DNA of 64,000 nucleotides, taken from NCBI GenBank assembly GCA_965602015.1, contig OZ271918.1:896001-960000 (forward strand), given 5' to 3'. Made by a program: the position numbers and the translations under genes. Shown in pieces: positions 7,280 through 25,879 of the stretch. Every line of letters starts with the position of its first letter. Position 1 is the first letter of the stretch. The notes below the pieces were generated by a model. That model was not told the DNA's origin and searched no databases. It worked only from the letters and a program-made list of their open reading frames with translations. The stretch is from Salinispira sp. (GTDB lineage Bacteria; Spirochaetota; Spirochaetia; DSM-27196; Salinispiraceae).

Positions 7280-7283
7280 TTTT

Positions 7284-8708: not shown

Positions 8709-8736
8709 GGGGGCTCCTTGTATTTCGGTTGGAAGC

Positions 8737-9221
8737 TTACTTGAAGTTCTCCGCCTCAATGGACTGCACAAGCTCGAAATTTTTCTGGAGGAAATCCCTC
8801 TTGAATTCCATCTTCTGGGCGAATGCCATGGCGAGCCATGCCTGGGCAATCTGGACTCCCAGGAAGGGCGCGGTTATCCAGCCGCCCATGGTTATGACAT
8901 TCGCATTGTTGATGATTTTTGCCCGCTCGCCGCTGAAAATTGAGTCAGCCACGCAGGCATACACGCCCCGGTGCTTATTGGCGACGATGGCCATGCCCTG
9001 CCCGGTCCCGCACACCAGAATCCCCTTGTCCGCCGTGCCGCTTTGCACGGCTTTTGCGACCTTCGGGGCCTGGGCGGTGTACGGCTCGGGTTTATCCGGG
9101 TCGCTGATGCCGAAATCGATGACGGTGACATCGTCCCGTTCGGCCAGAAACTCGCCGATTGCCTTTTTAGGGGGAATCCCGAAAGGTCCGATGCGATGGC
9201 TATGGTGATGTTTTCTGCCAT
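8737..9221 (-). pseudogene. RpiB/LacAB-family isomerase (SqwI-like sulfoerythrose isomerase) with a single-base frameshift, possibly a sequencing error
   Basis: N-terminus MAENITIAIASDLSGFPLK and C-terminus GILVCGTGQGMAIVANK...NNANVITMG lie in different frames. Adding one A in the A5 run (plus-strand T run 9164-9168) restores LKKAIGEFLAERDDVTVIDFG. Confidence 0.85.
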
Positions 9222-9267: not shown

Positions 9268-10203
9268 TTACTTGCTGTTGTCGATCAGCGACGATGCCGC
9301 CCGGGCAATATGCTCGGCGGTCATACCGTAGGCTTCAAGAAGCCCGTCGAGAAGCCCCACCTGTCCGAATTCGTCCTGGCTGCCGATCCGGCTCAAGCGG
9401 CAGGGAATGGCTTCCTCGGCGATGACCTCCGCCACCGCGGAACCGAGGCCGTTGTGAATATTATGGTTCTCGCAGCTCACCGCCAGTCCGGTTTTTTCCA
9501 GGGAAGATGCGATGAGCCCGCGGTCCAAGGGCTTCAGGCTCAGGGCGTCGATGACTTCCGCTTCAATACCCCGGGACGCCAGGATGTCCGCGGCTTCCAG
9601 GGTCTGCTGAAGCATAACCAAACCAAGTGAAATGAGGGTAATGTGGCTGCCGCTGCGCACGACCTTTGCCTTTCCGAGTTCGAAGTTTTCGGACTCATCG
9701 TAGTAAGTCCATCCGCCCTTGCGGTGAAGGCGGATGTACACGGTTTTGGGGTATTCGGCGATGAGGGGAAGCAGTTTCCGCAGGGAGGTTTCATCCGACG
9801 GCTCAACTATTGTGAGCTTGGGTATGTTCCGCATCAGGCCGGCGTCCTCGAAGGGCATGTGGGTACCGCCGTTGTATTGGGCGGTAACCCCCGGATCGGT
9901 TCCCACCAGTTTGACATTGAGTTGGGCATAGTTGGCCGACAGAAAGAACTGATCGTACACCCGCCGGCTGGCGAAACAGCCGAATGTGGCGGCAAAGGGA
10001 ATTTTTCCGGCGGCGGAAAGCCCCGATGCGATGCCGACCATATTTGCCTCGGCGACGCCGACGTTTATTGTCCGTTCGGGATAGGCGCTCTTGAAGCCTT
10101 TTGTTCCCGACGCTCCCATAAGGTCGGCTTCGAGAATGCATATATTCTGGTTTTTCGCGGCGAGCTCCGTCAGCACATCGTTATATACCTGTCGCATATC
10201 CAT
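9268..10203 (-). CDS. Transketolase, C-terminal subunit (SqwGH-like)
   Basis: NVGVAEANMVGIASGLS, FGCFASRRVYDQ, NGGTHMPFED, ENHNIHNGLGSAVAE; ATG at 10203. Confidence 0.92.
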   Translation of the reverse strand: MDMRQVYNDVLTELAAKNQNICILEADLMGASGTKGFKSAYPERTINVGVAEANMVGIASGLSAAGKIPFAATFGCFASRRVYDQFFLSANYAQLNVKLVGTDPGVTAQYNGGTHMPFEDAGLMRNIPKLTIVEPSDETSLRKLLPLIAEYPKTVYIRLHRKGGWTYYDESENFELGKAKVVRSGSHITLISLGLVMLQQTLEAADILASRGIEAEVIDALSLKPLDRGLIASSLEKTGLAVSCENHNIHNGLGSAVAEVIAEEAIPCRLSRIGSQDEFGQVGLLDGLLEAYGMTAEHIARAASSLIDNSK

Positions 10204-10207
10204 ATTC

Positions 10208-11038
10208 TTACTTCTCCTGGTCTTCCAAGGCCCGGATGGCCTCATCTGCGGTTTCCCGGTCGAGGGGCATGTTGTGATTGCCCAAATTGTGCTCTGCGAA
10301 AGCCGCGCCTTTGCCCTTTACGGTATCCATAATGATCATGCTGGGCTTGCCTTGTACCCGTTTTGCGTTTTCGATGGCATCGTCGATGGCAGCCACGTCG
10401 TGGCCGTCTATTCTCTGGACGTGCCAGTTAAACGCGGTCCATTTGGCTGCAATATCTTCCAGACCCATGATGTCAGCCGTCATCCCGTCTATCTGCATCT
10501 TGTTGAAGTCGGTAAAGGCGATGAGGCGGTCGAGTTTGTAATGCGGAGCGGCCATGGCGGCTTCCCATATTTGCCCTTCCTGGCTCTCGCCGTCGCCAAT
10601 GCAGGCGTACACGAATGATTCCTTCTTATCCATGCGCAGACCCAGTGCAATGCCGATGGCCGCCGAAAGGCCCTGGCCGAGGCTTCCGGTAGTCATGTCG
10701 ATTCCCGGGGTGCGATTTCTATCCGCATGGCTGGGGAGGTTGGTTCCCACCACATTCAGGGTCTTTAACCAGTCGGAATGGAAAAAACCCCGGTCCGCCA
10801 GTACACTGTACAGGGCGGGGCCCGCATGGCCCTTGGAGAGGACGAACCAGTCCCGGTTATCCATCCGGGGTTGTTTCGGATCGATGTGCATCTGCCGGTA
10901 ATACAGGACGGTAAGCAGTTCGACAATGGACATCGAGCCGCCGACATGGCCGACTCCCAGGTTGGCGATTGATTCCAGGGTCATCCGGCGTATAAGGCGC
11001 GCCTTTCGCTCAAGGGTGATACGCGTGTTCTGATCCAT
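10208..11038 (-). CDS. Transketolase, N-terminal TPP-binding subunit (SqwGH-like)
   Basis: GHVGGSMS, DWFVLSKGHA, TGSLGQG, TPP motif GDGESQEG...N, DTVKGKG. Confidence 0.93.
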   Translation of the reverse strand: MDQNTRITLERKARLIRRMTLESIANLGVGHVGGSMSIVELLTVLYYRQMHIDPKQPRMDNRDWFVLSKGHAGPALYSVLADRGFFHSDWLKTLNVVGTNLPSHADRNRTPGIDMTTGSLGQGLSAAIGIALGLRMDKKESFVYACIGDGESQEGQIWEAAMAAPHYKLDRLIAFTDFNKMQIDGMTADIMGLEDIAAKWTAFNWHVQRIDGHDVAAIDDAIENAKRVQGKPSMIIMDTVKGKGAAFAEHNLGNHNMPLDRETADEAIRALEDQEK

Positions 11039-11118: not shown

Positions 11119-12312
11119 GTGAAGGAATTGAATACGGTGAATACGAAAAATCCGGTGAGAAGCAGCGATATCCGCGAAGCCAATGAGAAGCTCATTCTGA
11201 GCATTATACGTGAAGAGAGAAGCACCTCCCAAAGCGAGGTGGTATCCCGAACCGGGCTGAGAGCGCCGACGGTGCTGAGGTTTTTTACCGATCTTGAAGA
11301 GCGGGGATACATTCAAAAATCCGTCTCATCCGAGCCGCCAACTTCAGAGAGCGAAAAGCGCGGGCGCCGGCCGGTGTACTACGAGGTCGTGCCAGAATCC
11401 GCGTATGCCATAGGGCTCGAGTTCTGGCTGGAGTCTGCTTCGGTGGTAATCGAGGATTTTAGCGGGGAGGTGGTGTATTCCCAGATTGAAGATATTTCCG
11501 GCCGCAGCGGTAATTCCTTACCGGAGTTCCTTATGTCCCTGGTCCGGACAGGCATAAAGCATGCCGGGCTGGAAGATGCGAACATCATCGGCATCTGCGT
11601 CGCCGCACCCGGCCAGGTTGATGTGGAAACCGGCGACATAATCCAGTATTCCCGCAAGGGGCTTGCGGATATAAACCTGCGGGACTTATTCCAATCCGGG
11701 CTTTCCATACCTGTTCTCATCCAGAATAACAGCACCGCCGTCGCCTGGGATTTTTACATGAACGGACCCGGCAGAGAGCATCCGTCCCTGTTTACCATTA
11801 TGATCCGCTCCGGCGTCGGCGGAGCGTTTATCGACAACCGGGAAATTTTCGTTACCAAAACCCATACCACCCTGGAAATCGGTCATATCGCCGTGGAATA
11901 CAACGGACGGGCCTGCGACTGCGGCAGCAGCGGCTGCCTGGAAGCCTATGTGTCCGAACAGGCCATCCTCCAGGACTGCGCCTGTATACCGGGGATCAGT
12001 ACCATCGGCGATTTTGACAGTCTGGATGATGCGGCCCACAAAGAAACCGTCAGCGAATGTCTGCAATCCAAATCCGGCATGCTCGCCATGGCGGTGAGAA
12101 ACCTGATAAGCCTTTTCGGGCCGGAAATGGTGCTTATTGTGACCAGATCCCGGGTTCTCGGCGATATTCTCGCCGGTCAGGTTGCCAAGGAAGTTCGCGC
12201 CCAGTCCAGCGACCGGTGGCAGGGAGAAACCCGGATAGCATCGGCATGCTACGATCCCCTGAGAGCCGGCCGCGGGGCAGCGGAGCTGCTGTTCCGGCAA
12301 TTCCTAGGTTGA
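11119..12312 (+). CDS. ROK-family (NagC/XylR-like) transcriptional regulator
   Basis: N-terminal HTH (SQSEVVSRTGLRAPTV...LEERGYI, GRRP); ROK domain with GVGGAFI, EIGH and CDCGSSGCLE. Confidence 0.92.
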   Translation: MKELNTVNTKNPVRSSDIREANEKLILSIIREERSTSQSEVVSRTGLRAPTVLRFFTDLEERGYIQKSVSSEPPTSESEKRGRRPVYYEVVPESAYAIGLEFWLESASVVIEDFSGEVVYSQIEDISGRSGNSLPEFLMSLVRTGIKHAGLEDANIIGICVAAPGQVDVETGDIIQYSRKGLADINLRDLFQSGLSIPVLIQNNSTAVAWDFYMNGPGREHPSLFTIMIRSGVGGAFIDNREIFVTKTHTTLEIGHIAVEYNGRACDCGSSGCLEAYVSEQAILQDCACIPGISTIGDFDSLDDAAHKETVSECLQSKSGMLAMAVRNLISLFGPEMVLIVTRSRVLGDILAGQVAKEVRAQSSDRWQGETRIASACYDPLRAGRGAAELLFRQFLG

Positions 12313-12322
12313 GAGGCAATAC

Positions 12323-14389
12323 ATGTCAGCATTAGAGCAATCGTCAGGGTCTGGGGAGCAATACGCCGCTTTGTCCCTCACGGGAGAATTTACCGAGGAT
12401 TCCTTTTCCATCTTCTTTAAAGACCGGCTCATAATCCGGCACAGCCCCGACGACCCCTGCCTTGCCAGCGGTGAAGGGCGGGGGACATACCGCTTTGTCT
12501 ATGGACTGTTCAAAATTTCCGACAACATTACCAAACGACATGAGCACATCGGCTATGAGCGGCGGGAGCATACTGCTGACGGATTTACCCTGTCCTTCGA
12601 TAACGGCGCTACCCTGTCCTGTATGGTTCGACAGGGACGGCTGCACATAAGCGTCAAAACCAGCTCTCCGGAAAACCGGACTAACCGGGTATGGCTGCAG
12701 GTCCAGGGCCTTGCCGGCGAGCGTGTCTACGGCGGCGGTGAGCAGTACAGCTACCTCGATTTAAAGGGGAGAACGCTTCCGGTGTGGGTTCAGGAGCCGG
12801 GGCTCGGCCGCGGGCGGGACCTGGTGACGCTACGGGCGGAGCTCAAGTCGGGTTACGGCGGCAGCTGGTTTTCCACCTACTTCGCCCAGCCGACCTTCCT
12901 GTTTTCCCGGGGCGCGTATATCCACTGTGAATCCAGCGCGTATATGGAGGCGGATTTCAGGAAGGATGGAAAATATGAATTTGCAGTGTGGGAAGGGGAT
13001 TTCACCCTCGTCCTCGATGTGAATAAACAACCCCTGGACCTAATCGAGTCGCTTACGGGGTACATCGGCCGTCAGCCCCGGCTACCCGATTGGGCCTATG
13101 ACGGGTTGTGGCTTGGAACCCAGGGGGGGCGGGAAACCACGGGGCAGCGAATGAAAAAGATGCAGGCCGCCGGTGTGAAGATCGCCGCGCTCTGGTGTCA
13201 GGACTGGGAGGGCAAACGGGAAACCAGCTTTGGCAAACAGTTGTTCTGGGACTGGATCTTCAGCAGTGAGCTGTATCCAGACCTGCCCGGCTATATTAAA
13301 GAGCTAAAAAAGCAGCACGTCCGCTTTCTGGGCTATATCAATCCCTTCCTGGCCATTGAGGGAGAGCTCTACAAAACCGCTGCGAAGAACGGGTACTGCG
13401 TAAAAGATCCTTCGGGCAAGGATTACCTGGTAACCATAACCGACTTCCCCGCGGCGATGATCGACCTGACCAATCCCGAGTGCCGAACATGGATAAAATC
13501 AATTATCCGGTCGAATATGATCGACATCGGACTCGCCGGCTGGATGGCCGACTTTGGTGAATATATTCCGGCGGACGCCGTGTTCTACGACGGTTCGAAT
13601 GCCGAGCACTTTCATAACCGCTATGTGGTGGAGTGGGCAAAAATCAACCGAGAAGCCGTGGATGACGCGGGTAAGCGGGATGAAATCATCTTCTTTATGC
13701 GCGCGGGTTACAGCGGCAGCCAGGCCTTCGCATCGGCATTCTGGAACGGGGACCAGTTGGTAAACTGGAGCCGTCACCAGGGTCTTCCCACCGTCATTCC
13801 CGGCAGCCTTTCTCTCGGCCTCATCGGGGCCGGGTATGTACATAGTGATCTGGGCGGATATACCACAATCTTTCATCTTAAGCGGAGTAAAAGGCTGATG
13901 ATGCGCTGGGCCGAGCTATCGGCATTCAGTCAGACCATGCGCAGCCACGAGGGCAATCGGCCGCACATAGGGTGGCCCCTGGATGGGGATGATGAAACCA
14001 TGAAACATCTGGCGCGCATGACCGGCATCTTCACCGACTTGAAACCCTATCATCAGGAACTCTCGCAAGAATACCAGGAGAAGGGCACACCTCCAATGCG
14101 TCATCTTTGGCTGCACTATCCTGATGATCCTCAGATTCGAAACCGGAAGCTTCAGTACCAATACCTGTATGGTCCGGATCTTCTGGTGGCGCCGGCGTAT
14201 AAGCGCTTTTCCCGGTTTCGCACAGTATATCTGCCCTCTGATGACTGGGTGCATATGTGGACCGGCAAACCGTATCCCCGGGGGTGGGCGAGGGTTCCCG
14301 CTGTTCTCGGCTCCCCGCCGGTTTTCTACAGAAAACCGTCACGTTGGTCTGATTTTTTCAAGACTCTGGCAGATCGCTGGTCTTCGTGA
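12323..14389 (+). CDS. yihQ: GH31 alpha-glucosidase, sulfoquinovosidase (YihQ)-like
   Basis: LGTQGG, QDWEGKRETSFGKQLFWDW, LGYINPF, nucleophile WMADFGEY, acid/base WNGDQ, HSDLGGYT, MRSHEGNRP; no signal peptide. Confidence 0.85.
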   Translation: MSALEQSSGSGEQYAALSLTGEFTEDSFSIFFKDRLIIRHSPDDPCLASGEGRGTYRFVYGLFKISDNITKRHEHIGYERREHTADGFTLSFDNGATLSCMVRQGRLHISVKTSSPENRTNRVWLQVQGLAGERVYGGGEQYSYLDLKGRTLPVWVQEPGLGRGRDLVTLRAELKSGYGGSWFSTYFAQPTFLFSRGAYIHCESSAYMEADFRKDGKYEFAVWEGDFTLVLDVNKQPLDLIESLTGYIGRQPRLPDWAYDGLWLGTQGGRETTGQRMKKMQAAGVKIAALWCQDWEGKRETSFGKQLFWDWIFSSELYPDLPGYIKELKKQHVRFLGYINPFLAIEGELYKTAAKNGYCVKDPSGKDYLVTITDFPAAMIDLTNPECRTWIKSIIRSNMIDIGLAGWMADFGEYIPADAVFYDGSNAEHFHNRYVVEWAKINREAVDDAGKRDEIIFFMRAGYSGSQAFASAFWNGDQLVNWSRHQGLPTVIPGSLSLGLIGAGYVHSDLGGYTTIFHLKRSKRLMMRWAELSAFSQTMRSHEGNRPHIGWPLDGDDETMKHLARMTGIFTDLKPYHQELSQEYQEKGTPPMRHLWLHYPDDPQIRNRKLQYQYLYGPDLLVAPAYKRFSRFRTVYLPSDDWVHMWTGKPYPRGWARVPAVLGSPPVFYRKPSRWSDFFKTLADRWSS

Positions 14390-14523: not shown

Positions 14524-15279
14524 ATGACAAAAAGCGGTCAGCTGTTTAGCGCAGATGCCAGCCGATGCGAATTAAAAGAGTTATTCAACCACCACACCTC
14601 CAATCTCGATGGTCTGAGCGCTGCGGAAATTCGAATACAGAATTCTATCAGTCCGCCATTCGCCTTTGAAGGTGAGGAAGTACTGCTGTTTAACCTGGGG
14701 GCGCCGCTTACCGCCCGGGTGAACGGAGCAGACTACCAGCTGGCCCATTACGATGTTCTCTATGTCCCGCTCAACAAGGGTTTTAGGCTAAGCCACAATG
14801 GAGATGAACCGGGTCTTGTGTATGCGTATCGGGCGACCGGTACTGAAGACTACCCGGTGTTCCATTCCGGCTATGAAGACGCCAGGAAGAGTAAAGAGCG
14901 CATCCGCCACCTGAACCGGAAAGTCGTGTATAAAATGTTCGATGTCTCCGAGGGGGCCAACAAATTCATGGCGGGCTATACATTCTACGACGACCACACC
15001 AGAGCCTGGCCGCCTCATAACCACACCGATCAAGAGGAGGTCTACAGCTTCATCGAAGGCAAGGGCGCCATGACGGTATACGAAGACGATGAACACCAGA
15101 CCTTTGTGACATCGGTAAAGGTGGGAAGCCACGTTACCATTCCGGTGCTCAATTACCATCCGGTGTTCAGTCACGATGAGCCCCTGTGTTTTATCTGGTG
15201 CATCGCCGGGGAACGGTATTGGGTAGGGGACAAAAACACCGACTTCATGAAGGGAGACGGGGAAAAGATAACCACGTAA
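14524..15279 (+). CDS. IolB/KduI-like bicupin sugar isomerase
   Basis: AWPPHNHTDQEEVY and YHPV metal-binding motifs resemble IolB SSYPPHKHD...EEIY...GYHPV; the N-terminal cupin has YDVLYVP. Confidence 0.7.
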   Translation: MTKSGQLFSADASRCELKELFNHHTSNLDGLSAAEIRIQNSISPPFAFEGEEVLLFNLGAPLTARVNGADYQLAHYDVLYVPLNKGFRLSHNGDEPGLVYAYRATGTEDYPVFHSGYEDARKSKERIRHLNRKVVYKMFDVSEGANKFMAGYTFYDDHTRAWPPHNHTDQEEVYSFIEGKGAMTVYEDDEHQTFVTSVKVGSHVTIPVLNYHPVFSHDEPLCFIWCIAGERYWVGDKNTDFMKGDGEKITT

Positions 15280-15398: not shown

Positions 15399-16655
15399 AT
15401 GAAGCTTGTGTACCGCAGTACGGTAATTCTAATGGTGCTGTCCGCAATGGTGCTATTAGCTGTGGGCTGCAGTCCCGCGGAAGAAGAGGTAGTGGTTCTG
15501 AACTTCCCGACTTTCTGGGTCGGACAGGATTCAAAGGCTGAACCCATCGCCGCCCTTGTTGAGAGTTTCAACAACATGTATGAGGGGCAATATCAGGTTG
15601 TTATCGAGCCGAATCCCGATACCGACGGATATCGTGATAAACTGAACACCCAACTGGCTTCCGGACAGGCTCCGGACATCTTTGTATTCAATCCCGACCC
15701 CACCACCTTCCAGTACTACGAAAGCGACATCCTCATGGATTTCACCGACGAACTGACCGGCGCATGGGCTTCGGATTTTGTCAGCAGCTATATCACCGAC
15801 AGCACCCGAAACGGGGCTATTAAGTCCGTGCCCTTCGAAATCGGCATCACCCCGGTATGGTACAACATGGACCTTCTGGCCCGGGCAGGCGTTGACGAGA
15901 TTCCGGCGACCATCGAAGATTTCTACGTCATGGCTGAAGCGCTCAAAGCCGAAGGAATTGTTCCCGGCAGCCAAATGACCGGCGGTTCCAATGCGTGGAC
16001 CAGCATGCTCTGGTACAGTCACATAGTCGGCAGCATCGGCGGACCCGATGTATGGTCCAAGCCCCTGACCGATCCGGTTTTTGTTGAAGCGGCAGCGGTT
16101 CTCCAGCAGCTGTACCAAAACGGCAATACCACCAGGGACGCGGTAGGCGGGGACGCCGGTGTCTCAGGAGGACACTTCCTGGCTTCCAATACCGCGACTT
16201 TTATCAACGGTCCCTGGTACATCGGCCGTATCCGCGGCGATGCTCCGGAAGTCCACGCGGTAACCCGTCTGGCTCCGGCTCCCCAGGTAGGCGATTACTC
16301 CGGACATCAGATCGGTTTTATGCTTTCAAACCTGGCGGCGGCCAATACCGATGATCCCCGCCGGAGGGAGGCGGTCATCACATTCTTGAAACACATGACC
16401 GATCCGGACAATGTGAAAATGGTCAGCGAAGCGGCGGGTTCCCTGTTCGCCATAAAGTACGAGCTCGGCGCCAACGCCGATCCCCTTCAGCGGGAATTCG
16501 TACGGGCGGCCAGCGAGGCCACCTTCGTCATCAACCACTTCCAGTCGGCCTTCGACATAGCGGTTGTGCAGGAATTCGGACAGGCCCTGGCGCTTTTGGC
16601 CCTCGATGAAGCGACTCCCGAAGAGTTTGTCCAGGCCTTGGTAGACGCCCAATAA
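15399..16655 (+). CDS. Sugar ABC transporter substrate-binding lipoprotein (CUT1)
   Basis: GGAGG RBS before ATG at 15399; lipobox LAVGC; LASGQAPDIF, WYNMDLLARAG, FINGPW. Confidence 0.9.
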   Translation: MKLVYRSTVILMVLSAMVLLAVGCSPAEEEVVVLNFPTFWVGQDSKAEPIAALVESFNNMYEGQYQVVIEPNPDTDGYRDKLNTQLASGQAPDIFVFNPDPTTFQYYESDILMDFTDELTGAWASDFVSSYITDSTRNGAIKSVPFEIGITPVWYNMDLLARAGVDEIPATIEDFYVMAEALKAEGIVPGSQMTGGSNAWTSMLWYSHIVGSIGGPDVWSKPLTDPVFVEAAAVLQQLYQNGNTTRDAVGGDAGVSGGHFLASNTATFINGPWYIGRIRGDAPEVHAVTRLAPAPQVGDYSGHQIGFMLSNLAAANTDDPRRREAVITFLKHMTDPDNVKMVSEAAGSLFAIKYELGANADPLQREFVRAASEATFVINHFQSAFDIAVVQEFGQALALLALDEATPEEFVQALVDAQ

Positions 16656-16760
16656 GTAAGTATGCCCTGAGCTGCCAGGCTCTCGGCCACGACGGTCGTC
16701 CGGTCTGTATCCTTGGCCGGACGGCCGCACTATTTCACCGTACCCCAGGGAGAACCGCCA

Positions 16761-17651
16761 ATGCGTGTCCGAAGCAAAAAAAATGCCTTGTGGATATTAC
16801 TTTTCCTCGCCCCGGTTTTGATTTTGTACGGACTGTACTTCATCTATCCTCTTGGTTTTATTTTCGTCACCAGCACGCTCGACTGGAACGGTATAAGCGA
16901 ACCGGTTTTTGTTGGTTTGCAGAATTATGTAAAGAATTTTTCCAACGCCACCTTTCAAATATCCCTTCGAAATAATGCGGTGTGGCTATTCGCCAACGGT
17001 ATTCTTCAAATAAGTATGGCCGCCCTCGTAGCCCTCATACTGGCAAGGCAGCCGAAAGGGTGGCGCTTCCTGAGAACCGCGTATTTTCTTCCGAATGTCA
17101 TCTCCCAGGTCGCCATCGCCATGATGTGGGCCGCCCTGTACAATGCGGAGTACGGCGCCATCAATCAATTCCTCTCGGCGATCGGGCTTAACGAGCTGAC
17201 CCGAAACTGGCTTGGGGAACTCAATACCGCCCTCCCGGCAATTATTATCCAGCAGATTTTTTACATCGGATATTTCATGATTATCATTCTCGCCTCGCGC
17301 ATGACTATTCCCGAAAGCCTCTATGAAGCCGCGGAAATGGACGGGGCAAACGCCGTTCAGCAGGACTGGTTCATCACCCTCCCCATGATAAAGCCGATAC
17401 TTATCACCGCAATGACCCTGGCCATGGCCTATGGTCTCAGGCATTTCGAGGCTACATTCCTTTTAACAAACGGCGGGCCGGCGAACCGAACCTCCGTTCT
17501 GGGAATCATGATGTATAAGCGCCTGAGCTCACTTGATTACGGTGAGGCCGCCGCCATCGGCGTTACCCTGGTGATTTTGGGGCTCATTATGATCGTCGTA
17601 ATTCGCAGCACCATCGGGCGCAGAGATTCCGCCTCCGATGTAACGCAATAG
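16761..17651 (+). CDS. Sugar ABC transporter permease
   Basis: FVGLQNY, FLPNVIS and EAA loop IPESLYEAAEMDGA. Confidence 0.92.
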   Translation: MRVRSKKNALWILLFLAPVLILYGLYFIYPLGFIFVTSTLDWNGISEPVFVGLQNYVKNFSNATFQISLRNNAVWLFANGILQISMAALVALILARQPKGWRFLRTAYFLPNVISQVAIAMMWAALYNAEYGAINQFLSAIGLNELTRNWLGELNTALPAIIIQQIFYIGYFMIIILASRMTIPESLYEAAEMDGANAVQQDWFITLPMIKPILITAMTLAMAYGLRHFEATFLLTNGGPANRTSVLGIMMYKRLSSLDYGEAAAIGVTLVILGLIMIVVIRSTIGRRDSASDVTQ

Positions 17652-17662
17652 GGGAGGGCACA

Positions 17663-18511
17663 ATGGCAATCGTTCGTTACGAAACCTCGGGAGACAGGGT
17701 CGGCAAAATCGCCAAGTGGCTGATTCTCGGTTTTTTCTTCCTGTTCACCTTCATGCCGCTGGTATGGCTGCTAATATCGAGCTTCAAGACGAATCTCGAG
17801 CTGCAAATTGCCCCCTTCAGTCTGCCTGAGGTGTGGCAGATTTCCAATTACATCAACGCTTTGAAGATCAGCGGTCTGCCGCGGCTCTTTTTGAACAGCT
17901 TTGTCGTGTCAACTGCATCAACGGCGCTGACAATCCTGGTTACTTCCATGGCGGGTTTTGTGTTTTCCCGGGAGGTTTTCCGGTTTCGTCAGTCCATTCT
18001 CAATCTGATCATCGCCGGCGTTCTGGTCCCCATCATCGCCCTCATGGCCCCCTATTTCAGACTTACCGCGGCCCTCGGCATATATGACACTCTGCTCGCC
18101 CTGATTCTGACCTACACCGCTATAAACATTCCGATTTCCACATTCCTGATGTACGGATTTATGCAGACCCTACCCAAGGAGCTGGAGGAGGCGGCCACCA
18201 TCGACGGAGTAGGATTCGCCGGCCGCTATTGGAAAATCATATTACCGCTGAGCAAATCGGGGATTGTCACCGCGGGAACATTTGTTTTCCTATTCAGCTG
18301 GAATGAATTCATTTACGCCCTGCTGCTGACCTCCCGCCCCGCCGCCCGTACGCTTCAGCTCGGAATCCGTTTTTTCGTAAGTCAATTCTTTACGGATAAT
18401 ACATCCATGTTCGCCGCCATCGTACTGACCATGCTGCCCACTGTTTTGCTGTACGTATTTATGCATGAACAGATTATCAAGGGCTTAACCAGCGGTTCGG
18501 TGAAAGGGTAG
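17663..18511 (+). CDS. Sugar ABC transporter permease
   Basis: EAA loop LPKELEEAATIDG, FSWNEF, C-terminal GSVKG. Confidence 0.92.
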   Translation: MAIVRYETSGDRVGKIAKWLILGFFFLFTFMPLVWLLISSFKTNLELQIAPFSLPEVWQISNYINALKISGLPRLFLNSFVVSTASTALTILVTSMAGFVFSREVFRFRQSILNLIIAGVLVPIIALMAPYFRLTAALGIYDTLLALILTYTAINIPISTFLMYGFMQTLPKELEEAATIDGVGFAGRYWKIILPLSKSGIVTAGTFVFLFSWNEFIYALLLTSRPAARTLQLGIRFFVSQFFTDNTSMFAAIVLTMLPTVLLYVFMHEQIIKGLTSGSVKG

Positions 18512-18523
18512 AGAATAACATTG

Positions 18524-18672
18524 CACTGCCCCGAAAACAGCTGATGTGCGAGGGGAAAACATTGTGCAGCAATGATTTGCGAAGATATTTGCCGATCAGT
18601 TCACCGGAGGGCGGGCAATTCCTGTCCAGAAAAACGCTTAGACTGTTTAAATCAGCTGTTTTGGGGGCACTG
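18524..18672. mobile_element. MITE-like intergenic element bounded by 22-bp imperfect inverted repeats
   Basis: CACTGCCCCGAAAACAGCTGAT (18524-18545) versus ATCAGCTGTTTTGGGGGCACTG (18651-18672), 2 mismatches; no transposase; no clear target duplication. Confidence 0.4.
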
Positions 18673-18707: not shown

Positions 18708-19553
18708 ATGAAGCCGGGTAGAAAAATCAGTGGACTCTCACAACAAACACCGGAAGGTAACCATGAGCTGAGCTCTGACGCAGCCAATCTTCCCTTGCCG
18801 CTGGAGATAGTCGAAAATGACACCGAGCTGTACTGGCTCATGGCCCTGGAGCTCTACGGGGCTCTTGCCAGGCTCACTCCCGGAGAATCCCTGCGCTGCA
18901 TCGCTCCGGTGGGGCCGGTTTTCCAGTACCGACGATTTATCAGGCTTGTTGACGAGCTCCCCATTGATTTGGCCGGGCTTCATCTGTTTTTTATGGACGA
19001 ATACCTTAACGACGACGGAAGTGTTATTAATAGGACCGATCCTCTTTCGTTCCGCGGCTTCATCGATAAGGAACTCGTCGAACCGCTGGGGACCCGGCAC
19101 GGCTTCAATCCCGGGCAGCTGTATTTTCCCGACCCCGCTGATCCGTCTTCCTACGACCGCATCATCGATGAACATGGGGGCATCGATGTCTGCTTCGCCG
19201 GTGTGGGAATCAACGGACATCTGGCATTCAACGAAGCGCCGAGCGCCGCCGATTCGCCTTCCAGAGTGGTGGAGCTGTCCGCCGAAACCCGGGTCACTAA
19301 CGGCCATACCGCCCTGGGGGGCGACTGGGAGAGCATTCCCCGGCTTGCCGTCACTGTCGGGATGAAGAGCATACTCGCGAGCCGAAGGCTTCGAATCTAC
19401 TGTAACCGTCCATGGCAGCGATCGGTGGTGCGTAAGCTGCTGTACGGACCGGTCGGTCAGGCCTTTCCGGCATCATTCGCGCAAAACCACCGGGATGCCC
19501 GGCTCACGGTCACAAGGACTGTTGCCGAATCGCCCCGGCCGGGGCTGAAGTAG
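18708..19553 (+). CDS. NagB-like glucosamine-6-phosphate deaminase/isomerase family protein
   Basis: PVGPVFQY, FFMDEY, PLSFRGF, GVGINGHLAFNE, AVTVGMKSIL, FPASFAQNH; start uncertain. Confidence 0.8.
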   Translation: MKPGRKISGLSQQTPEGNHELSSDAANLPLPLEIVENDTELYWLMALELYGALARLTPGESLRCIAPVGPVFQYRRFIRLVDELPIDLAGLHLFFMDEYLNDDGSVINRTDPLSFRGFIDKELVEPLGTRHGFNPGQLYFPDPADPSSYDRIIDEHGGIDVCFAGVGINGHLAFNEAPSAADSPSRVVELSAETRVTNGHTALGGDWESIPRLAVTVGMKSILASRRLRIYCNRPWQRSVVRKLLYGPVGQAFPASFAQNHRDARLTVTRTVAESPRPGLK

Positions 19554-19560
19554 ATACGCT

Positions 19561-20516
19561 ATGGAACTAATTGATTTTCATGTGCACGGCGGGCCGCCCA
19601 AACGCAGCGAAGAAATCACCCGCTATATAAATGAGAGCGGCATTGCAGCCATGGGCATGCTCTCCCTTCCCTGCCTCCTTTGTATGCCTGTGCCACCCTC
19701 AATGACGAGATCCTGGAAACCGCCCGCCGCGTGGATGCCGCCCGGCCGGGCTTTCCGCTTGTTCTCTTCGGCTCCCTCGATGATGAAAAATTACGGGTAT
19801 CAGGCTATGAACCCGAAGAAATGGTGGACGATTTGAAGTCCCGGGGCTTCGGCGGTGTGAAACTCTGGGAGGGCAAACCCCATCTTGTCAGGCGACTTTC
19901 GATGCTTCCCGATGACAGGCGCTTCGTTTTGCTGTGCCGCCGGGCAGCCCAGCTCTCCATGCCGGTCATTTTCCATATTGCGGATCCCCCGGCATTCTGG
20001 AAAAACGGCGGCCCCTATGCCTCCGACGATTCGCTTCCGGGCTTTTCCGACCTTATTGAAGCCGCAAGCCGCCTGGCATCTTTAGCGCCCCAATGCACCT
20101 TCATTTTTCCCCACATGCTGTTTCTCGCCGGGGACCTTGGAGTTGCCGCCCGCTTCCTTGATGAGCACCCGTCTTGTTACTTCGACCTGGCTCCCGGGAA
20201 CTACCTGTTTGCCGATTTGGCCTTGCGCAGGGAGGAGGCTGCTGCGTTTTTCGCACGGTATTCGAAGCGCATTGTATTCGGCACCGACGGCTTCTGGTTC
20301 GACCCCGGTGACAAGACCCTCGCCGGTGACAGCTACGGTGGAAACCTGCTGCGCTTCACCAGACTTCTGGATTTCCTGTCTACGGACCGGCAATTTGACA
20401 ATCCATTTGGCTTTAGCGTTGAAGCCCACCCCCGCATTACCGGCCTCAAGCTGCCGGAAAGCATCCTTCGTCCCATTCTTTCTGAGAATGCAAAGGTCAT
20501 TATGGAGGCCCTATGA
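19561..20516 (+). pseudogene. Amidohydrolase-family (TIM barrel) metalloenzyme split by a one-base frameshift, possibly a sequencing error
   Basis: N-terminal IDFHVH in the frame of 19561; GVKLW, PVIFHIAD, FPH and IVFGTD in the frame of 19680. One extra C in the run at 19669-19671 joins them (LSLPLPPLYACATLN). Confidence 0.8.
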
Positions 20517-21631
20517 TGCGCTGTGCCGTCGCCGGATTGGGTATCGGACTGGCCCATGTCGCCGGCTATTTTGCATCGCCGGATGCCGAACTCGTCGCCG
20601 TTGCCGACCCGTGGGAACCACGTAGGCAGTCCCTCGGCGGAACCTTCGGGCAGGGGAGCATGAGGGTTCTCGAACCCCTGTTCGACGAGGGGCAAAAATC
20701 TGCCAGTTGGGACGAGCTGGGGATAGCGGCGTATGCGGACATATCGTACCTGGCTGAACGCCGCGATATTGATGTGGTCAGTATCTGTACGCCGGCCTAC
20801 CTGCACGAACAGCATGCCCTCTTGCTTCTGGAGGCGGGGAAACACATCATCCTCGAAAAGCCCATTGCCCTGAGTTTGGAGGCGGCGGAGAATATACGCC
20901 GAGCAGCCCGAAGGCTCGGGCTCACGGTGGCTGTGGCCTATGAGTTTCGGGAGAACCCCGCAATCATCGCGTTGAAAGGCCTCGTTGAAGCGGGGGAGTT
21001 CGGGGATATTAGCGCATGGAGCCTGTATCACACCCGCAGGCCCTTCCGAAGGGATAAATGGAATGGCTGGATTCAAAAGCAGGAGAACTGCGGAGGACTG
21101 CTGACCGAGGAAACATCTCATTGGTTCGATCTTCTCTGCCATGTAAGCGGGGATGCAATAACATCGGTGTACTGCCTGGGATCTGCTTCTATCCATGGGG
21201 ATTTTGATTATGAGGATATCGCGTTCTGTCAGGGGAGGATGCAAAGAGGGGCGGTCTGGCAGTTGTCCCACGCGCTTACCAGCCACGATTTCGCCTTGAC
21301 AATCGAGGTTCACGGTACCCGGAGGATGGCCCGGCTATCGCTCAAAGAGGGAGCGTACAGCAGCTTCGACGGCGGCCAAAGCGATTACTGGGGCATACTC
21401 AGCCACGGCCCTGTGAACGGCGGCCCCGGCGATGCGGAAATTACGCGCTGGTCAAGAGAGGCCGGAGAACCCGAGAGTATCAGGGATAACGTGGTTCGGG
21501 TAGTGCAATGCCTCCGCGGCAACAGACCGCTGCCGGTGGGCATTGAAGACGCCATCAGGGCGCTCCGGATATCCCTGGCGGCCAGGGAAAGCATGAACAG
21601 CGGAACTGTTATCGAGATTCCACTGGCTTGA
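20513..21631 (+). CDS. Gfo/Idh/MocA-family NAD(P)-dependent oxidoreductase
   Basis: GLGIG Rossmann motif, ICTPAYLH, GKHIILEKP, GGLLTEETSHWFD. Confidence 0.9.
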   Translation: MMRCAVAGLGIGLAHVAGYFASPDAELVAVADPWEPRRQSLGGTFGQGSMRVLEPLFDEGQKSASWDELGIAAYADISYLAERRDIDVVSICTPAYLHEQHALLLLEAGKHIILEKPIALSLEAAENIRRAARRLGLTVAVAYEFRENPAIIALKGLVEAGEFGDISAWSLYHTRRPFRRDKWNGWIQKQENCGGLLTEETSHWFDLLCHVSGDAITSVYCLGSASIHGDFDYEDIAFCQGRMQRGAVWQLSHALTSHDFALTIEVHGTRRMARLSLKEGAYSSFDGGQSDYWGILSHGPVNGGPGDAEITRWSREAGEPESIRDNVVRVVQCLRGNRPLPVGIEDAIRALRISLAARESMNSGTVIEIPLA

Positions 21632-22271
21632 TTCTGATATTGTCCCCTGTGATGCCCACGTATGCCCCCCGCTGCGCTGCGGGGGATTCGGGATGGCAGA
21701 GCATCCATTTGTTTTTCATGAAGTACGTCGGGTCATCAGACTGCGGAGTTTCCAGGGGGCGGTTGGTTCCCTCCGGAAGGATGATAATCGTGCAAAAGGG
21801 ATGTTCGCTCACCCGGCACGGGGCAAGATGAAGCGTGTTGCCGTATAATTCGACCAGGCTTCCCGCCGGCAGATAGAACGGGACCGCCATTGAGGAATCC
21901 CACGTGAAATCGGTAATATCCTCGGCTCTGCCGAGAAATAGCACCACATCGCTCACCGCAACGATAACCTCGCTTCCCCGATGATACTCCATACCGTTCA
22001 TTCGGTCGTTCATGCCGAAGCATAATCCCGCCTGCAGGGCAGTGGAATTGCCGTATACCTCCGATCGGATTTTTGAAAATGACTCGAAGTGCTTCAGAAC
22101 TTCCAACTCCCGCTTGTATGCCGGACCTTCCAGATCAACCTCGGTCAGCGCCTGTACAAACATCTCGCTGCAGTCTATCCCACGAACCAAACGGCCGTAT
22201 CTCGCCAAATCCGGAGAATCTGCGGGAAGTATCCGCAGGGGGGCATTTGCCTTGTTTAATTGCTCTAACAT
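21609..22271 (-). CDS. DUF4867-family protein (SftX-like, found in sulfoglycolysis clusters)
   Basis: YGRLV, QAGLCFGMNDRMNGMEYHRGSE, VELYGNTLHLAPC, ILPEGTN, KNKWMLCH, GAYVGITGDNI. Confidence 0.8.
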   Translation of the reverse strand: MLEQLNKANAPLRILPADSPDLARYGRLVRGIDCSEMFVQALTEVDLEGPAYKRELEVLKHFESFSKIRSEVYGNSTALQAGLCFGMNDRMNGMEYHRGSEVIVAVSDVVLFLGRAEDITDFTWDSSMAVPFYLPAGSLVELYGNTLHLAPCRVSEHPFCTIIILPEGTNRPLETPQSDDPTYFMKNKWMLCHPESPAAQRGAYVGITGDNIRIKPVESR

Positions 22272-22298: not shown

Positions 22299-22455
22299 GG
22301 CGCCGCAGCCAAACCGCTGCCGCCAAACCGGCGCCGCAGCCAAACCGCTGCCGCCAAACCGGCGCCGCAGCCAAACCGGCGCTGCCACCCGACCAGCGCC
22401 GCAGCCAAACCGCCGCAGCTCAAATCGGCGCGGCAGGCCAATCTGCGCCGCAGCC
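22299..22455. repeat. GC-rich intergenic tandem repeat
   Basis: 31-bp unit GGCGCCGCAGCCAAACCGCTGCCGCCAAACC exact at 22299-22329 and 22330-22360, followed by degenerate ~15-17 bp GCCGCAGCCAAACC-like subunits. Confidence 0.85.
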
Positions 22456-24437
22456 TATTGACCTGCCAGCTCGGCAAACAGCCCGGCCCAGCGGGATTCG
22501 AGCCGGTAGAATACCGGCGGCTGGCCGTAGGGGGCATCGATCGGCCGGGTCCCGCCGCGGTATTCCGATCCGCTAAAAACGTGAATCCATCGGTCATCGG
22601 GAAAGTACACCGCTCGCTCTGCGGCTTGCTCCTTCACCACTGGGGCCACGAGAATATCCCGGCCCAACAGATATTGCTGGCTATCTTCGTATGCCCGGTC
22701 TTCTTCGTAGTAGAAAAACAGCGGTCTGATTGCCGGAACTCCCTGCTGGTAGTACTCATCCAACACCCCCAGCAGGTAGGGTTTGAGTCGTTTGTGGATT
22801 CTGCTGAAAAGGGCAGTGAGGGACACCGTCAATCCGTCATGGTCGAACTGAACGTTGTCCTTCGGCCGGTTGCCCTCATGGCTCCTCATGAGCGGAGAGA
22901 AGCAGCTCATCTCAAGCCACCGGATATACAGATCCCTCGATCGTTTAATAGATGCCACCGTGATGTATCCGCCGATATCGGAATGGCTGACTCCCATTCC
23001 GCTGAGTCCGGCGGAGATTTGAGCGCGGATGACCGAACCCATTCCGTAATCATCGCTAAAGTCGCAGTGCTGGTCGCCGTTCCACAACATGCCAGCGTGG
23101 CGGCTGGTTCCGGAATACGCGGCCCGGACAAAGAAAAACACGTCTTCCCCGGCGCCCGATTCGACAAGGGCTTCGCGGTTCATTCTGCTCCAGAGCACGG
23201 GCCACAAATTATGAATCAGCTCCGGGTCGCCGGCATGAAGGATGCAGTCGGTGGGCAGATATTCGCTGAAATCCGCCATCCACCCTGAAAGCCCGTAGCC
23301 GATCATATTGGTTTTGACGATGGCTTTCATCCATTCGAAAGCATCCGGGTTGGTCAGGTCCACCATCCCCACGGGGAAACTGGTAGTTTTTACGATATAC
23401 GGCTGCCGGTGCTGGTTTACTACAAGATACCCCCGCGATTCGGCTTCGGCGTATTGCTCGCCGTCGCACGCCAGGAATGGATTAATGTATCCCAGGAATC
23501 TGATGCCCTCCCGCTTCCATTCGCTAATTTTGTGCCGCAGTCCGGGGTAGAGATTCTCATCGGCCTTCCAGTTCCAGAATAACTGTTTGCCGAAGCCGGT
23601 TATCCGCTCGCCCTGCCAGTCCTGCGCCCATATGCCGCACAGCTCGGCGCCGGCCCGCTTCATCGCCCCAACTTTCTCTTCGCATACCGAGCTGCCTCCC
23701 TGGATTCCGAGAATGATGCCGTCGTGAATCCACTCGGGAAGTCTCGGTTGGATGCCCAGGCGTGTATTCAGCTCTCCAACCAGATCTGTGTAGTTCCGGG
23801 CGAATGTCAACACAATTTCTGCCGGCGCTGTGGAAAAGCTCAAGCTGTGACAATCACCGGCGCGGAAATCCAGGACGGCATGGGCTGAGGTATCCACATG
23901 ACAGGAATAGCGGGCCGTGGATATAAAATCAGGTTGTACCTGATATGTGGAATATTTTTCAAATGGCATCGGTTTTTTTATGCCAAGGAGTTTGAGAAGT
24001 TCCTTCCTGATGATCGACCAGGTGGTGGTGTGTTCGCTGATCCAGTTGATCACCCTGCATCCCCTGAGGTTGAAGCGGGCGAATTGTTCGCCGCAGCCGA
24101 AAATCATCTCATCCTTATCCGCCGCAAATTTCACCCTGACAGCCTGATCCTCGGCTAGGTTTCGAAAGCTGAGGCTGACTGAGTTCCCGGTTTCACGAAT
24201 ATCAATGCTGACTTTCTGGAATGCCAGGCTTATGCATTCGCTCTCGCTGATTTCTCCCCGGCCCGCGGAAAAGAATCGGGTCCGGTCCCGTATGCGGAAA
24301 TGACCCTTCTTCATGGCGAAGGTCTGTCGGCGTTTTCCGACAAAGAACGCCGGATCCCCCGGGGAATGCGAAAGAAGGAGACGGTCATTCCAGCGCAGCT
24401 CGAGGACGTGATTATTTGCCTCCAGCTTTATGCTCAT
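22455..24437 (-). CDS. yihQ: Second GH31 sulfoquinovosidase (YihQ)-like glycosidase
   Basis: LGIQGG, QDWQGERITGFGKQLFWNW, LGYINPF, WMADFSEY, WNGDQ, HSDIGGY, MRSHEGNRP. Confidence 0.85.
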   Translation of the reverse strand: MSIKLEANNHVLELRWNDRLLLSHSPGDPAFFVGKRRQTFAMKKGHFRIRDRTRFFSAGRGEISESECISLAFQKVSIDIRETGNSVSLSFRNLAEDQAVRVKFAADKDEMIFGCGEQFARFNLRGCRVINWISEHTTTWSIIRKELLKLLGIKKPMPFEKYSTYQVQPDFISTARYSCHVDTSAHAVLDFRAGDCHSLSFSTAPAEIVLTFARNYTDLVGELNTRLGIQPRLPEWIHDGIILGIQGGSSVCEEKVGAMKRAGAELCGIWAQDWQGERITGFGKQLFWNWKADENLYPGLRHKISEWKREGIRFLGYINPFLACDGEQYAEAESRGYLVVNQHRQPYIVKTTSFPVGMVDLTNPDAFEWMKAIVKTNMIGYGLSGWMADFSEYLPTDCILHAGDPELIHNLWPVLWSRMNREALVESGAGEDVFFFVRAAYSGTSRHAGMLWNGDQHCDFSDDYGMGSVIRAQISAGLSGMGVSHSDIGGYITVASIKRSRDLYIRWLEMSCFSPLMRSHEGNRPKDNVQFDHDGLTVSLTALFSRIHKRLKPYLLGVLDEYYQQGVPAIRPLFFYYEEDRAYEDSQQYLLGRDILVAPVVKEQAAERAVYFPDDRWIHVFSGSEYRGGTRPIDAPYGQPPVFYRLESRWAGLFAELAGQ

Positions 24438-25879
24438 CAGTTTCCTCCGAGGCTCTGATAGGTCCGTCCGGTGACCAGCTCGCAGGCTCGTATCACCTCG
24501 GGGTCATCGGCGCTGTTTTCCCCCCTTGCCCGGGCTTTAAGTTCCTTCCTCATGAGCTCATGGGTTTCCGGGTCGATTTTGAAGTTTCGTGAAAAGGCGA
24601 TGCCGGCAATGAGCAGCACAAAGGGGAAGAATATGAACATAAAGCGGATTCCGTTGATGGTTTGAACGCTTTGGACTGCTCCCCCCTCGACGAAATTGAA
24701 CAGGCTCAGACCGATGCCCACAACCTGGAGGGCGATGGCCTGGGAGATCTTCCTTATAAAAGTCGTCATTCCCGAGTAAATCCCCTCGCGGCTTCTCCCG
24801 CACATAATCGTATCCGCATCAATGACGAAGGGAAGATTGTTGTACGGGACAAAGATTCCCCCAGCCAGTCCGAATGCGAAGACCGCTCCGGTCGTCATTA
24901 TGACCCATGCAGGAACGCCAGAGGGGAGCAGGGAAAGGCCGAGAATGCCCGCCAGGCAGATAAGAAGGTGGCGACGGAAAACCCTGGCGTTCCCCCATTT
25001 CATACAGCTTCGGGCCACAACAATGATTCCGATAATCTGGACAATCAGCACGGTACCGAGAATGAGATTCTCACCCTGGGCATAGTTGAGATAATAAATG
25101 AGGTAGAACATCAAAAGAGCCATAAAAATATCCATGGAGGCGTAGGCTGACAGGTACATGCCGATATGGCTTCTGAAGGACTTGTTCCTGAAGGTGGAAA
25201 AGAACTCGCCGAAGATTTCCCCAATGGTTTTTGCCTGCCGGCTGCGCTCTTCCTCGCTTACCTCCCGCTCCCAGGTGCCGAGATAGGTGAAGATCCAGGG
25301 GGTGGAAAAGAAGATGCCGATGATCAGGGCGAAGTAAAAATACCCCAGATCATTGCGGCCCACCAGGGAAAAAATGATTCCAGGAACTACTGCGCTTACC
25401 AGCGTGCCGAATTGGGAAAACACCATTCTGATTCCCAGCATCTTCGAACGGGATGTATACTCATGAAGCATCTCTGCCGGCAGCGCGTTGTACGGAACCA
25501 TTACCATGGTAAACACCGTGTTAAAAAGCATATAGCTCAGCAGATAATAGATGAACTGGGCGGCTCCGCTCAGCGGCGGGTTAAGCCAGAGAAGAACAAA
25601 AGAGAGGGTGATGGGCACAATACCCAGAAGAAAAAATACCCTCCGGCGGCCGAAACGGCTCCTGGTTTTATCGGAGATAATGCCCATCATGGGGTCGGTA
25701 ACCGCATCCCAAATCTTGCCGAGAGATACGATCAGGCCGGCCATAACCGGATGTATGCCCACATTGGTGGTGAGGAAGAGCAAAAAGTACGTCCCGATGA
25801 TGATAAATGCTCCCCCGCCGTAGATGTCCCCTGCGCCGTAGGCAAGCATGTTCCTGAGTTTTACTTCTCGTTCGCTCAT
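24437..25879 (-). CDS. GPH-family (MelB/YihO-like) glycoside:cation symporter
   Basis: YGAGD, KIWDAVTDPMMGIISDKTRSRFGRRR, VPYNAL, REGIYSG. Confidence 0.9.
   Translation of the reverse strand: MSEREVKLRNMLAYGAGDIYGGGAFIIIGTYFLLFLTTNVGIHPVMAGLIVSLGKIWDAVTDPMMGIISDKTRSRFGRRRVFFLLGIVPITLSFVLLWLNPPLSGAAQFIYYLLSYMLFNTVFTMVMVPYNALPAEMLHEYTSRSKMLGIRMVFSQFGTLVSAVVPGIIFSLVGRNDLGYFYFALIIGIFFSTPWIFTYLGTWEREVSEEERSRQAKTIGEIFGEFFSTFRNKSFRSHIGMYLSAYASMDIFMALLMFYLIYYLNYAQGENLILGTVLIVQIIGIIVVARSCMKWGNARVFRRHLLICLAGILGLSLLPSGVPAWVIMTTGAVFAFGLAGGIFVPYNNLPFVIDADTIMCGRSREGIYSGMTTFIRKISQAIALQVVGIGLSLFNFVEGGAVQSVQTINGIRFMFIFFPFVLLIAGIAFSRNFKIDPETHELMRKELKARARGENSADDPEVIRACELVTGRTYQSLGGN

Follow-up and report, generated by a model that had tools for sequence, protein, structure and literature searches.

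A three-gene module predicted to feed an amino-sulfosugar into sulfoglycolysis in Salinispira sp.

A predicted entry route for an amino-sulfosugar

We examined three adjacent genes (positions 18708–21631, plus strand) in a 64,000-nucleotide stretch of the Salinispira sp. genome (assembly GCA_965602015.1, contig OZ271918.1, positions 896,001 to 960,000; hereafter the window). The genes encode a NagB-like protein, an amidohydrolase_2 protein and a Gfo/Idh/MocA oxidoreductase, and they are closely coupled, with a 7-bp gap between the first two and a 4-bp overlap between the last two. Judging from sequence comparisons, we lean towards the reading that the trio converts an N-acyl amino-sulfosugar, N-acetyl-sulfoquinovosamine, to sulfoquinovosamine and then to 6-deoxy-6-sulfofructose and ammonia. 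In the proposed order, the oxidoreductase, which resembles the GH188 sulfoquinovosidases, would use NAD+-dependent chemistry to free the sugar from its glycoside (the least secure of the three steps; the enzyme may instead be a plain dehydrogenase); the metal-dependent amidohydrolase would take off the N-acyl group; and the NagB-like enzyme would then act in the manner of NagB, opening the ring, isomerising the sugar and removing its amino group, with the sulfonate bound at the position of the NagB phosphate. The sulfofructose would then follow the adjacent transketolase route (SqwGH, SqwI, SqwD, SqwKL) to sulfoacetate or, in other hosts, be carried to sulfolactate by way of a transaldolase.

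An amino-sulfosugar entry giving sulfofructose had been proposed in a preliminary description of the same stretch. The proposal gained comparative support from the catalytic residues, from a PIG-L de-N-acetylase that takes the same slot in other loci, from orthologues of sulfofructose transaldolase (SF-TAL) and from the GH188-like oxidoreductase, while the deacetylation part we still infer.

The NagB-like protein

The NagB-like gene (18708..19553, plus strand) encodes 281 amino acids of a PVGP/NRPWQ subfamily and is a predicted amino-sulfosugar deaminating isomerase. The top Foldseek matches of its structural model (predicted local distance difference test, pLDDT, 90.9) were all NagB, with template modelling (TM) scores of 0.74–0.76. 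The 6-phosphogluconolactonases appeared from rank 27 at a TM score of about 0.6, with E values of 6e-11 or weaker against 5e-20 for the deaminases; a lactonase assignment was rejected, since lactonases are not the nearest structural neighbours. The best NCBIfam match was glucosamine-6-phosphate deaminase, which scored 99.7 bits where the cut-off is 326 (TIGR00502, 91.1 against 236.9). Residues D97, H171 and E176 align with the deaminase catalytic motifs, and we take their counterparts to be D72, H143 and E148 of E. coli NagB. Among the 120 listed homologues, the MDEY and GHxAFN[ED] motifs were each present in all (118 in the GHxAFNE form), and P[VI]GP and RxWQ were also present.

The phosphate site, which in NagB we take to consist of a Thr/Gly loop, Arg172 and Lys208, differs. 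As the preliminary description had read, PVGP (P67-V-G-P70, residues 67–70) replaces the phosphate loop; the motif R234-P-W236-Q237 puts Gln237 where E. coli NagB has Lys208, with Arg234 and Trp236 invariant alongside, and the position of Arg172 is variable within the family. These residues point to a protein with the deaminase catalytic residues kept and the anion site rebuilt. An Arg and Trp pair binds sulfonate in YihQ (PMC12780224), and by analogy Arg234 and Trp236 may bind the sulfonate.

The module thus shares with the NagA/NagB system (B. subtilis NagB, 2BKV; E. coli NagB, 1DEA) the NagB fold, the catalytic Asp/His/Glu motifs, an amide hydrolase partner and a predicted deacylate-then-deaminate logic leading to a fructose-configured ketose. 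It differs in the anion site (PVGP, Gln at the Lys208 position, new invariant Arg and Trp), in a partner that is amidohydrolase_2 or PIG-L and not NagA, and in a locus that has no kinase or phosphotransferase system and is set among sulfonate genes.

The amidohydrolase and the PIG-L partner

The amidohydrolase gene (19561..20516, plus strand; 318 amino acids after correction) is a predicted de-N-acylase. Its frame is broken in the window, and an X-filled read-through gave a single 318-amino-acid frame. The contigs of all three public runs searched (a single sample, possibly the source of the window itself) carried one extra base after 19668. The frameshift is an assembly error, and a frameshifted pseudogene was ruled out by that extra base; orthologues are intact. 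The RpiB-family gene of the window is likewise split by an omitted base after 9163, corrected in both runs that cover the site. With two single-base omissions (9163 and 19668) within 11 kb, other split genes of this genome, a single contig with 99.67% completeness, may be artefacts.

Orthologues of the amidohydrolase keep the metal-site pattern DxHxH, Lys, His, His, Asp, and the model of an intact one was a TIM barrel that matched 3IRS with a Z score of 22.1 and a root-mean-square deviation of 2.9 over 241 aligned residues (locus L016). A PDB sequence search with the amidohydrolase profile gave no match, and an ESM Atlas search returned Amidohydro_2 clusters only. We infer deacylation by this enzyme from gene context, because of the slot that it fills in the gene order, its listed fold neighbours not including NagA.

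In other loci this slot is held by a PIG-L protein, and the one that we tested was closer to BshB1, LmbE-type and diacetylchitobiose deacetylases than to the GalB-type hydratase. NagX-like genes were present in four loci, and a creatininase-family gene was nearby in one. We also observed one 694-amino-acid amidohydrolase-oxidoreductase fusion (P0163), a singleton cluster that may be a gene-calling artefact.

The oxidoreductase

The third gene (20513..21631, plus strand) encodes a GH188-like oxidoreductase, predicted from profile ranking and residues to be an NAD+-dependent glycosidase or a 3-dehydrogenase for 2-amino or acetamido sulfoglycosides. A profile of 13 orthologues had as its top PDB match the GH188 structure 8QC2 (99.4 bits), with an inositol dehydrogenase at 98.9 bits. 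We compared it with the functional residues of the NAD+-dependent GH188 sulfoquinovosidases (SqgA; 8QC2, 8QC3) given in PMC10755693 and PMC11465081. In the sequence alignment K116, R175, K182, E199 and H203 correspond to Lys107, Arg166, Lys172, Glu189 and His193 of GH188; R175 and K182, at the sulfonate-binding positions Arg166 and Lys172, were invariant in 13 out of 13 orthologues, in an alignment with a one-residue insertion. Unlike in GH188, F145 stands in place of Tyr136, which contacts the C2 hydroxyl, and the loop aligned with His321 has no His but an invariant Glu-Pro. The loss of the C2 hydroxyl contact fits a different C2 group on the substrate. Leu170, found in 96% of GH188 (PMC11465081), is Arg or Lys in the oxidoreductase, a mismatch that weighs little because the contact is made via the backbone. 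By these residues the protein is a sister of the GH188 sulfoquinovosidases and not a GH188 member; its score margin over inositol dehydrogenases is small. Eight other subfamily loci, most of them planctomycete, hold a related oxidoreductase that shares the Tyr and His changes and lacks the Lys.

Conservation and co-occurrence

Close orthologues of the NagB-like protein and of the amidohydrolase were each present in 13 of 61 related genomes, and both in 12; one exception is at a contig end. The gene order of the module was seen again in 18 other spirochaete loci and is therefore not due to chance; the oxidoreductase orthologue was absent from two of the 18 loci in which an amidohydrolase follows the NagB-like gene. 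No RNA data set carrying the sequence was listed, a negative with no bearing on expression. We surveyed 49 loci of the subfamily (NRPWQ-type motif) and 21 loci of more distant (outer) relatives, using marker queries and thresholds of our own choice that were derived from the same loci, several of which are near-duplicates. An amide-hydrolase-family gene was directly downstream of the NagB-like gene in 37 of the 49 subfamily loci: an amidohydrolase in 18 (all spirochaetes), a PIG-L de-N-acetylase in 19 (mostly Planctomycetota) and both in none. Among the remaining 12 loci, four were at a contig edge, one had the nearby creatininase-family gene and seven had neither.

The modules were not mostly found away from sulfoglycolysis genes, the outcome that the preliminary description had named as contradicting its proposal: strict sulfonate markers or an SF-TAL orthologue were detected in 32 out of 49 subfamily loci and in none of the 21 outer loci. 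With any transaldolase or transketolase counted besides the markers, the subfamily number was 40 out of 49. The transaldolase that we tested matched BmSF-TAL (8BC3) with 237.7 bits and an ordinary transaldolase with 144.6. Three related planctomycete genomes carried PIG-L, NagB-like and SF-TAL orthologues in a small cluster, and SftI, YihQ and KduI-like genes were not found in these three genomes.

The complete genome G014 has the importer, the repressor, a SftI-like gene, the transketolase route, YihQ and DUF4867 and lacks the module; G027 and G041 have the importer, the repressor and YihQ, also without the module. The module is thus a cassette added to some spirochaete sulfoglycolysis loci.

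Relatives of the outer group were found on plasmids, with no strict sulfonate markers seen in those of Haloarcula and Vibrio. On the Vibrio plasmid (L124:4962-12188), a NagB-like gene lies amid genes for nucleoside hydrolase, adenosylhomocysteinase, adenosine deaminase, ribokinase and a nucleoside transporter, and on the Haloarcula plasmids (L122:10094-25000; L123:1800-17900) two divergent NagB-like genes lie with ketohexokinase, aldolase, Gfo/Idh/MocA and DUF3604 genes and an ATP-binding cassette (ABC) importer.

A second transaldolase type was present in 19 loci (e.g. L044:7571-8212; L058:17739-18425), frequently accompanied by aldehyde dehydrogenase, SuyAB-like and LarA-family genes; we did not count it as a strict marker, because it is nearer to ordinary transaldolases than to SF-TAL, and it may represent a sulfofructose transaldolase of separate origin. 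A LarA-family nickel-dependent racemase adjoins the SuyAB-like genes (L044:13050-14348; L052–L054, L056, L058). The racemase of L044 exceeded the cut-off of the LarAH5 malate racemase model, and the enzyme is a candidate sulfolactate racemase replacing the ComC/SlcC pair. The aldehyde dehydrogenase of one planctomycete locus was indistinguishable from succinate-semialdehyde dehydrogenases. In two loci, one with the module and one without, a GH116 glycosidase gene lies immediately before yihQ (L049:9739-12213; L108:7430-9865).

The sulfoquinovose isomerase and alternative readings

The preliminary description had offered the NagB-like protein as a possible sulfoquinovose (SQ) isomerase in its own right. 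We consider it rather unlikely that the protein isomerises SQ or some other neutral sulfosugar without deamination, with its partners preparing the sugar in another way. This reading has in its favour that no SqvD/SftI (FucI/SftI-like) gene was found in the window genome or in the three planctomycete genomes with SF-TAL, and that an outer relative stands in a nucleoside cluster with no apparent amino sugar. It is weakened by the SftI-like gene already present in 13 of the 18 module loci (nine within the first stretches and four in adjoining ones), which makes a plain SQ isomerase function of the NagB-like protein unlikely, and it would leave unexplained both NagX and the PIG-L deacetylase that comes immediately after the NagB-like gene in 19 loci. 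A SftI-like gene was also found near YihQ in five module-less genomes, and its presence in both settings suggests that the module adds a substrate. The earlier suggestion that the module bypasses an SQ isomerase therefore fails in most loci, which keep a SftI/SqvD-like gene.

For the window genome, a better candidate for the missing isomerase is a KduI/IolB-family cupin gene (14524..15279, plus strand), because it was present in only two of 61 genomes, both with the transketolase locus and both without a SftI-like gene. The cupin likely serves as SQ isomerase in the window genome. KduI-like homologues, 45–48% identical, adjoin the SF transaldolase in four planctomycete loci.

It is improbable that the substrate is a 6-O-sulfate ester (GlcNAc-6-sulfate) and not a C-sulfonate, in which case the same three steps would give fructose-6-sulfate. 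In favour of this reading, GlcNAc-6-sulfate is common in nature, Gln occupies the sulfonate-binding Arg301 position of the spirochaete YihQ proteins, and a sulfatase is present in the minimal planctomycete cluster. A sulfatase could, however, simply hydrolyse the sulfate ester, and the downstream genes are of the sulfonate type (SF-TAL orthologues, SauS-like, two-subunit UxaA/SuyAB-like, ComC-like and DUF4867). The Gln variant is clade-wide, occurring in 19 out of 20 spirochaete GH31 copies with or without the module, for which reason it was also rejected as a marker of the module.

We give equally little credence to a redox pair, in which the oxidoreductase and the amidohydrolase would act on a sulfosugar as a dehydrogenase and a lactonase, or as a 3-dehydrogenase and a lyase or hydratase for stepwise glycoside cleavage, with no deacylation. 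The absence of Tyr136 and His321, the lactonases and the LigJ hydratase among the amidohydrolase fold neighbours, the singleton fusion and the fact that the PIG-L and amidohydrolase_2 families each include a hydratase would suit such a pair. The amidohydrolase, however, follows the NagB-like gene in 18 out of 18 loci with the oxidoreductase orthologue missing from two, the window locus has no Entner-Doudoroff dehydratase/aldolase pair, and the PIG-L proteins are closer to deacetylases than to the hydratase. It is highly improbable that the NagB-like protein is simply the housekeeping glucosamine-6-phosphate deaminase, placed here incidentally: it is the sole NagB-family match in the window genome and many database entries carry that name, but its phosphate-site residues are replaced, it scores far below the NCBIfam cut-off (99.7 against 326 bits), the genome gave no NagA match with the one query used, and sulfonate genes accompany it in two phyla.

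Substrate and evidence against the predicted route

The claim that sulfoquinovosamine occurs in haloarchaeal glycans was borne out by the beta-linked 6-sulfo-QuiN of the Haloarcula hispanica S-layer glycan (PMC9943897), and the GH188 enzymes cleave beta-glycosides. Several observations nevertheless weigh against the predicted conversion of N-acetyl-sulfoquinovosamine. The mass predicted for the H. hispanica glycan with a free amine (898.3) agrees with the reported 898, and the acetylated form would give 940.3; no report of an N-acetyl form of sulfoquinovosamine was found in the searchable literature. By mass, the documented sugar is thus the free amine, and the deacylase would require an acylated form.

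The enzymes raise points of their own. The preliminary description was right that the amidohydrolase is no NagA orthologue: neither the window piece nor an intact orthologue matched a NagA model or any NCBIfam model, only Amidohydro_2, and the fold neighbours listed for the orthologue model, at 11–19% identity, were uncharacterised amidohydrolases, lactonases, the LigJ hydratase and decarboxylases, with no NagA among them. The oxidoreductase lacks two GH188 catalytic residues. Outer relatives with PVGP occur in unrelated contexts, such as a nucleoside-salvage cluster, so PVGP alone is not diagnostic of an amino-sulfosugar.

The gene context has further gaps. Seven of the 49 subfamily loci had space available and yet no adjacent amide hydrolase, and nine had no sulfoglycolysis marker, four of these on stretches no longer than about 7 kb. 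In a quick phylogenetic tree of the NagB-like proteins, the amidohydrolase partners fall with one clade and the PIG-L partners with another (support 93 and 98), which reduces the partner swap to few independent events, not 37. A sulfatase gene follows SF-TAL in the minimal planctomycete cluster in both cases scanned. Finally, the window genome lacks the SqvD/SftI gene, and the isomerase genes of the other loci, at 130–331 bits against a cut-off of 700, are by their scores SftI-like and not proven SftI.

The surrounding locus

About 22 kb surrounding the module contain the gene set of the sulfoacetate-forming sulfo-transketolase (sulfo-TK) pathway (SqwGH, SqwI, SqwD and SqwKL), assigned at family level. 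On the minus strand we found a CoA-acylating sulfoacetaldehyde dehydrogenase-like gene, a two-subunit ADP-forming CoA ligase and a DASS transporter, forming the sulfoacetate branch (3740..8849), together with the SqwI-like RpiB-family isomerase with the assembly frameshift (8737..9221; 161 amino acids) and a two-subunit SqwGH-like transketolase (9268..11038). The acylating dehydrogenase scored 515.5 bits with the SauS model, under the cut-off of 600. A ROK-family repressor (11119..12312) and a first YihQ-clade GH31 sulfoquinovosidase (12323..14389) are on the plus strand. Downstream of the module, on the minus strand, are a DUF4867 protein (SqvB/SftX; 21609..22271) and a second YihQ-clade GH31 with a GPH-family symporter (22455..25879; the GH31 itself at 22455-24437). 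Both GH31 copies keep Gln288, Trp304 and Tyr508 with Gln at Arg301, and lack the full Q/E-R-W-Y motif (PMC12780224).

The window locus therefore resembles the sulfoacetate variant of the sulfo-TK pathway (SqvD, SqwGH, SqwI, SqwD, SqwKL; PMC9594981, PMC12890257) in its transketolase pair, RpiB-family isomerase, acylating aldehyde dehydrogenase, CoA ligase, DUF4867 and YihQ. It differs in the lack of SqvD, in the extra KduI-like cupin and three-gene module, and in the Gln at Arg301 of both YihQ copies.

The module lies 3' of the permease genes of a sugar ABC importer (binding protein and two permeases; 15399..18511, plus strand). The preliminary description had presented three tightly coupled genes following this importer, which holds within the trio but not for the importer: a 145-bp miniature inverted-repeat element (18526..18670), no part of the pathway, lies in the 196 bp that separate the module from the last permease. 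This element has terminal repeats of about 20 bp, is often TA-flanked and is represented by 29 paired copies and more than 100 terminal-repeat matches in the genome. The binding protein had generic PDB matches. An importer specific to the module was ruled out, since the same importer (54–60% identity) was present in the module-less loci of G014, G027 and G041.

Implications for sulfosugar breakdown

The sulfosugar breakdown routes in the literature that we compared begin at sulfoquinovose or sulfofucose. No description of an amino-sulfosugar breakdown route was found in the searchable literature, a search that left most subscription papers and supplementary gene-cluster tables outside, and the available parts of PMC11659671, PMC12421959 and PMC13219744 had no mention of glucosamine. 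The sulfofucose pathway of Paracoccus wurundjeri (PMC12421959) is similar in that a rare sulfosugar of archaeal or algal glycoconjugates has its own entry enzymes and is tied to sulfolactate breakdown; it differs in following an oxidative Entner-Doudoroff route, and in the available part of that source no NagB-like or amidohydrolase step was found.

At a wider scale, we put at about even the chances that Spirochaetota and Planctomycetota, at least, share an undescribed amino-sulfosugar route, in which a sulfonate-adapted NagB subfamily, interchangeable de-N-acylases and a GH188 sister family would feed N-acetyl-sulfoquinovosamine into sulfoglycolysis, and in which the KduI-type cupin would represent a new SQ isomerase class. 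With so many planctomycete hosts, the sugar may well come from a wider source than haloarchaea. If the route is real, its presence beyond halophilic hosts would mean that environmental glycans commonly contain an aminosulfosugar so far unreported, and a further sulfosugar would join the sulfur cycle through a deacylase and deaminase entry. It would connect sulfonate release with the surface glycans of archaea, and perhaps of bacteria, and would give a function to widespread proteins currently labelled glucosamine-6-phosphate deaminase (2,879 matches at an E value of 1e-30 or better, not all of the same subfamily).

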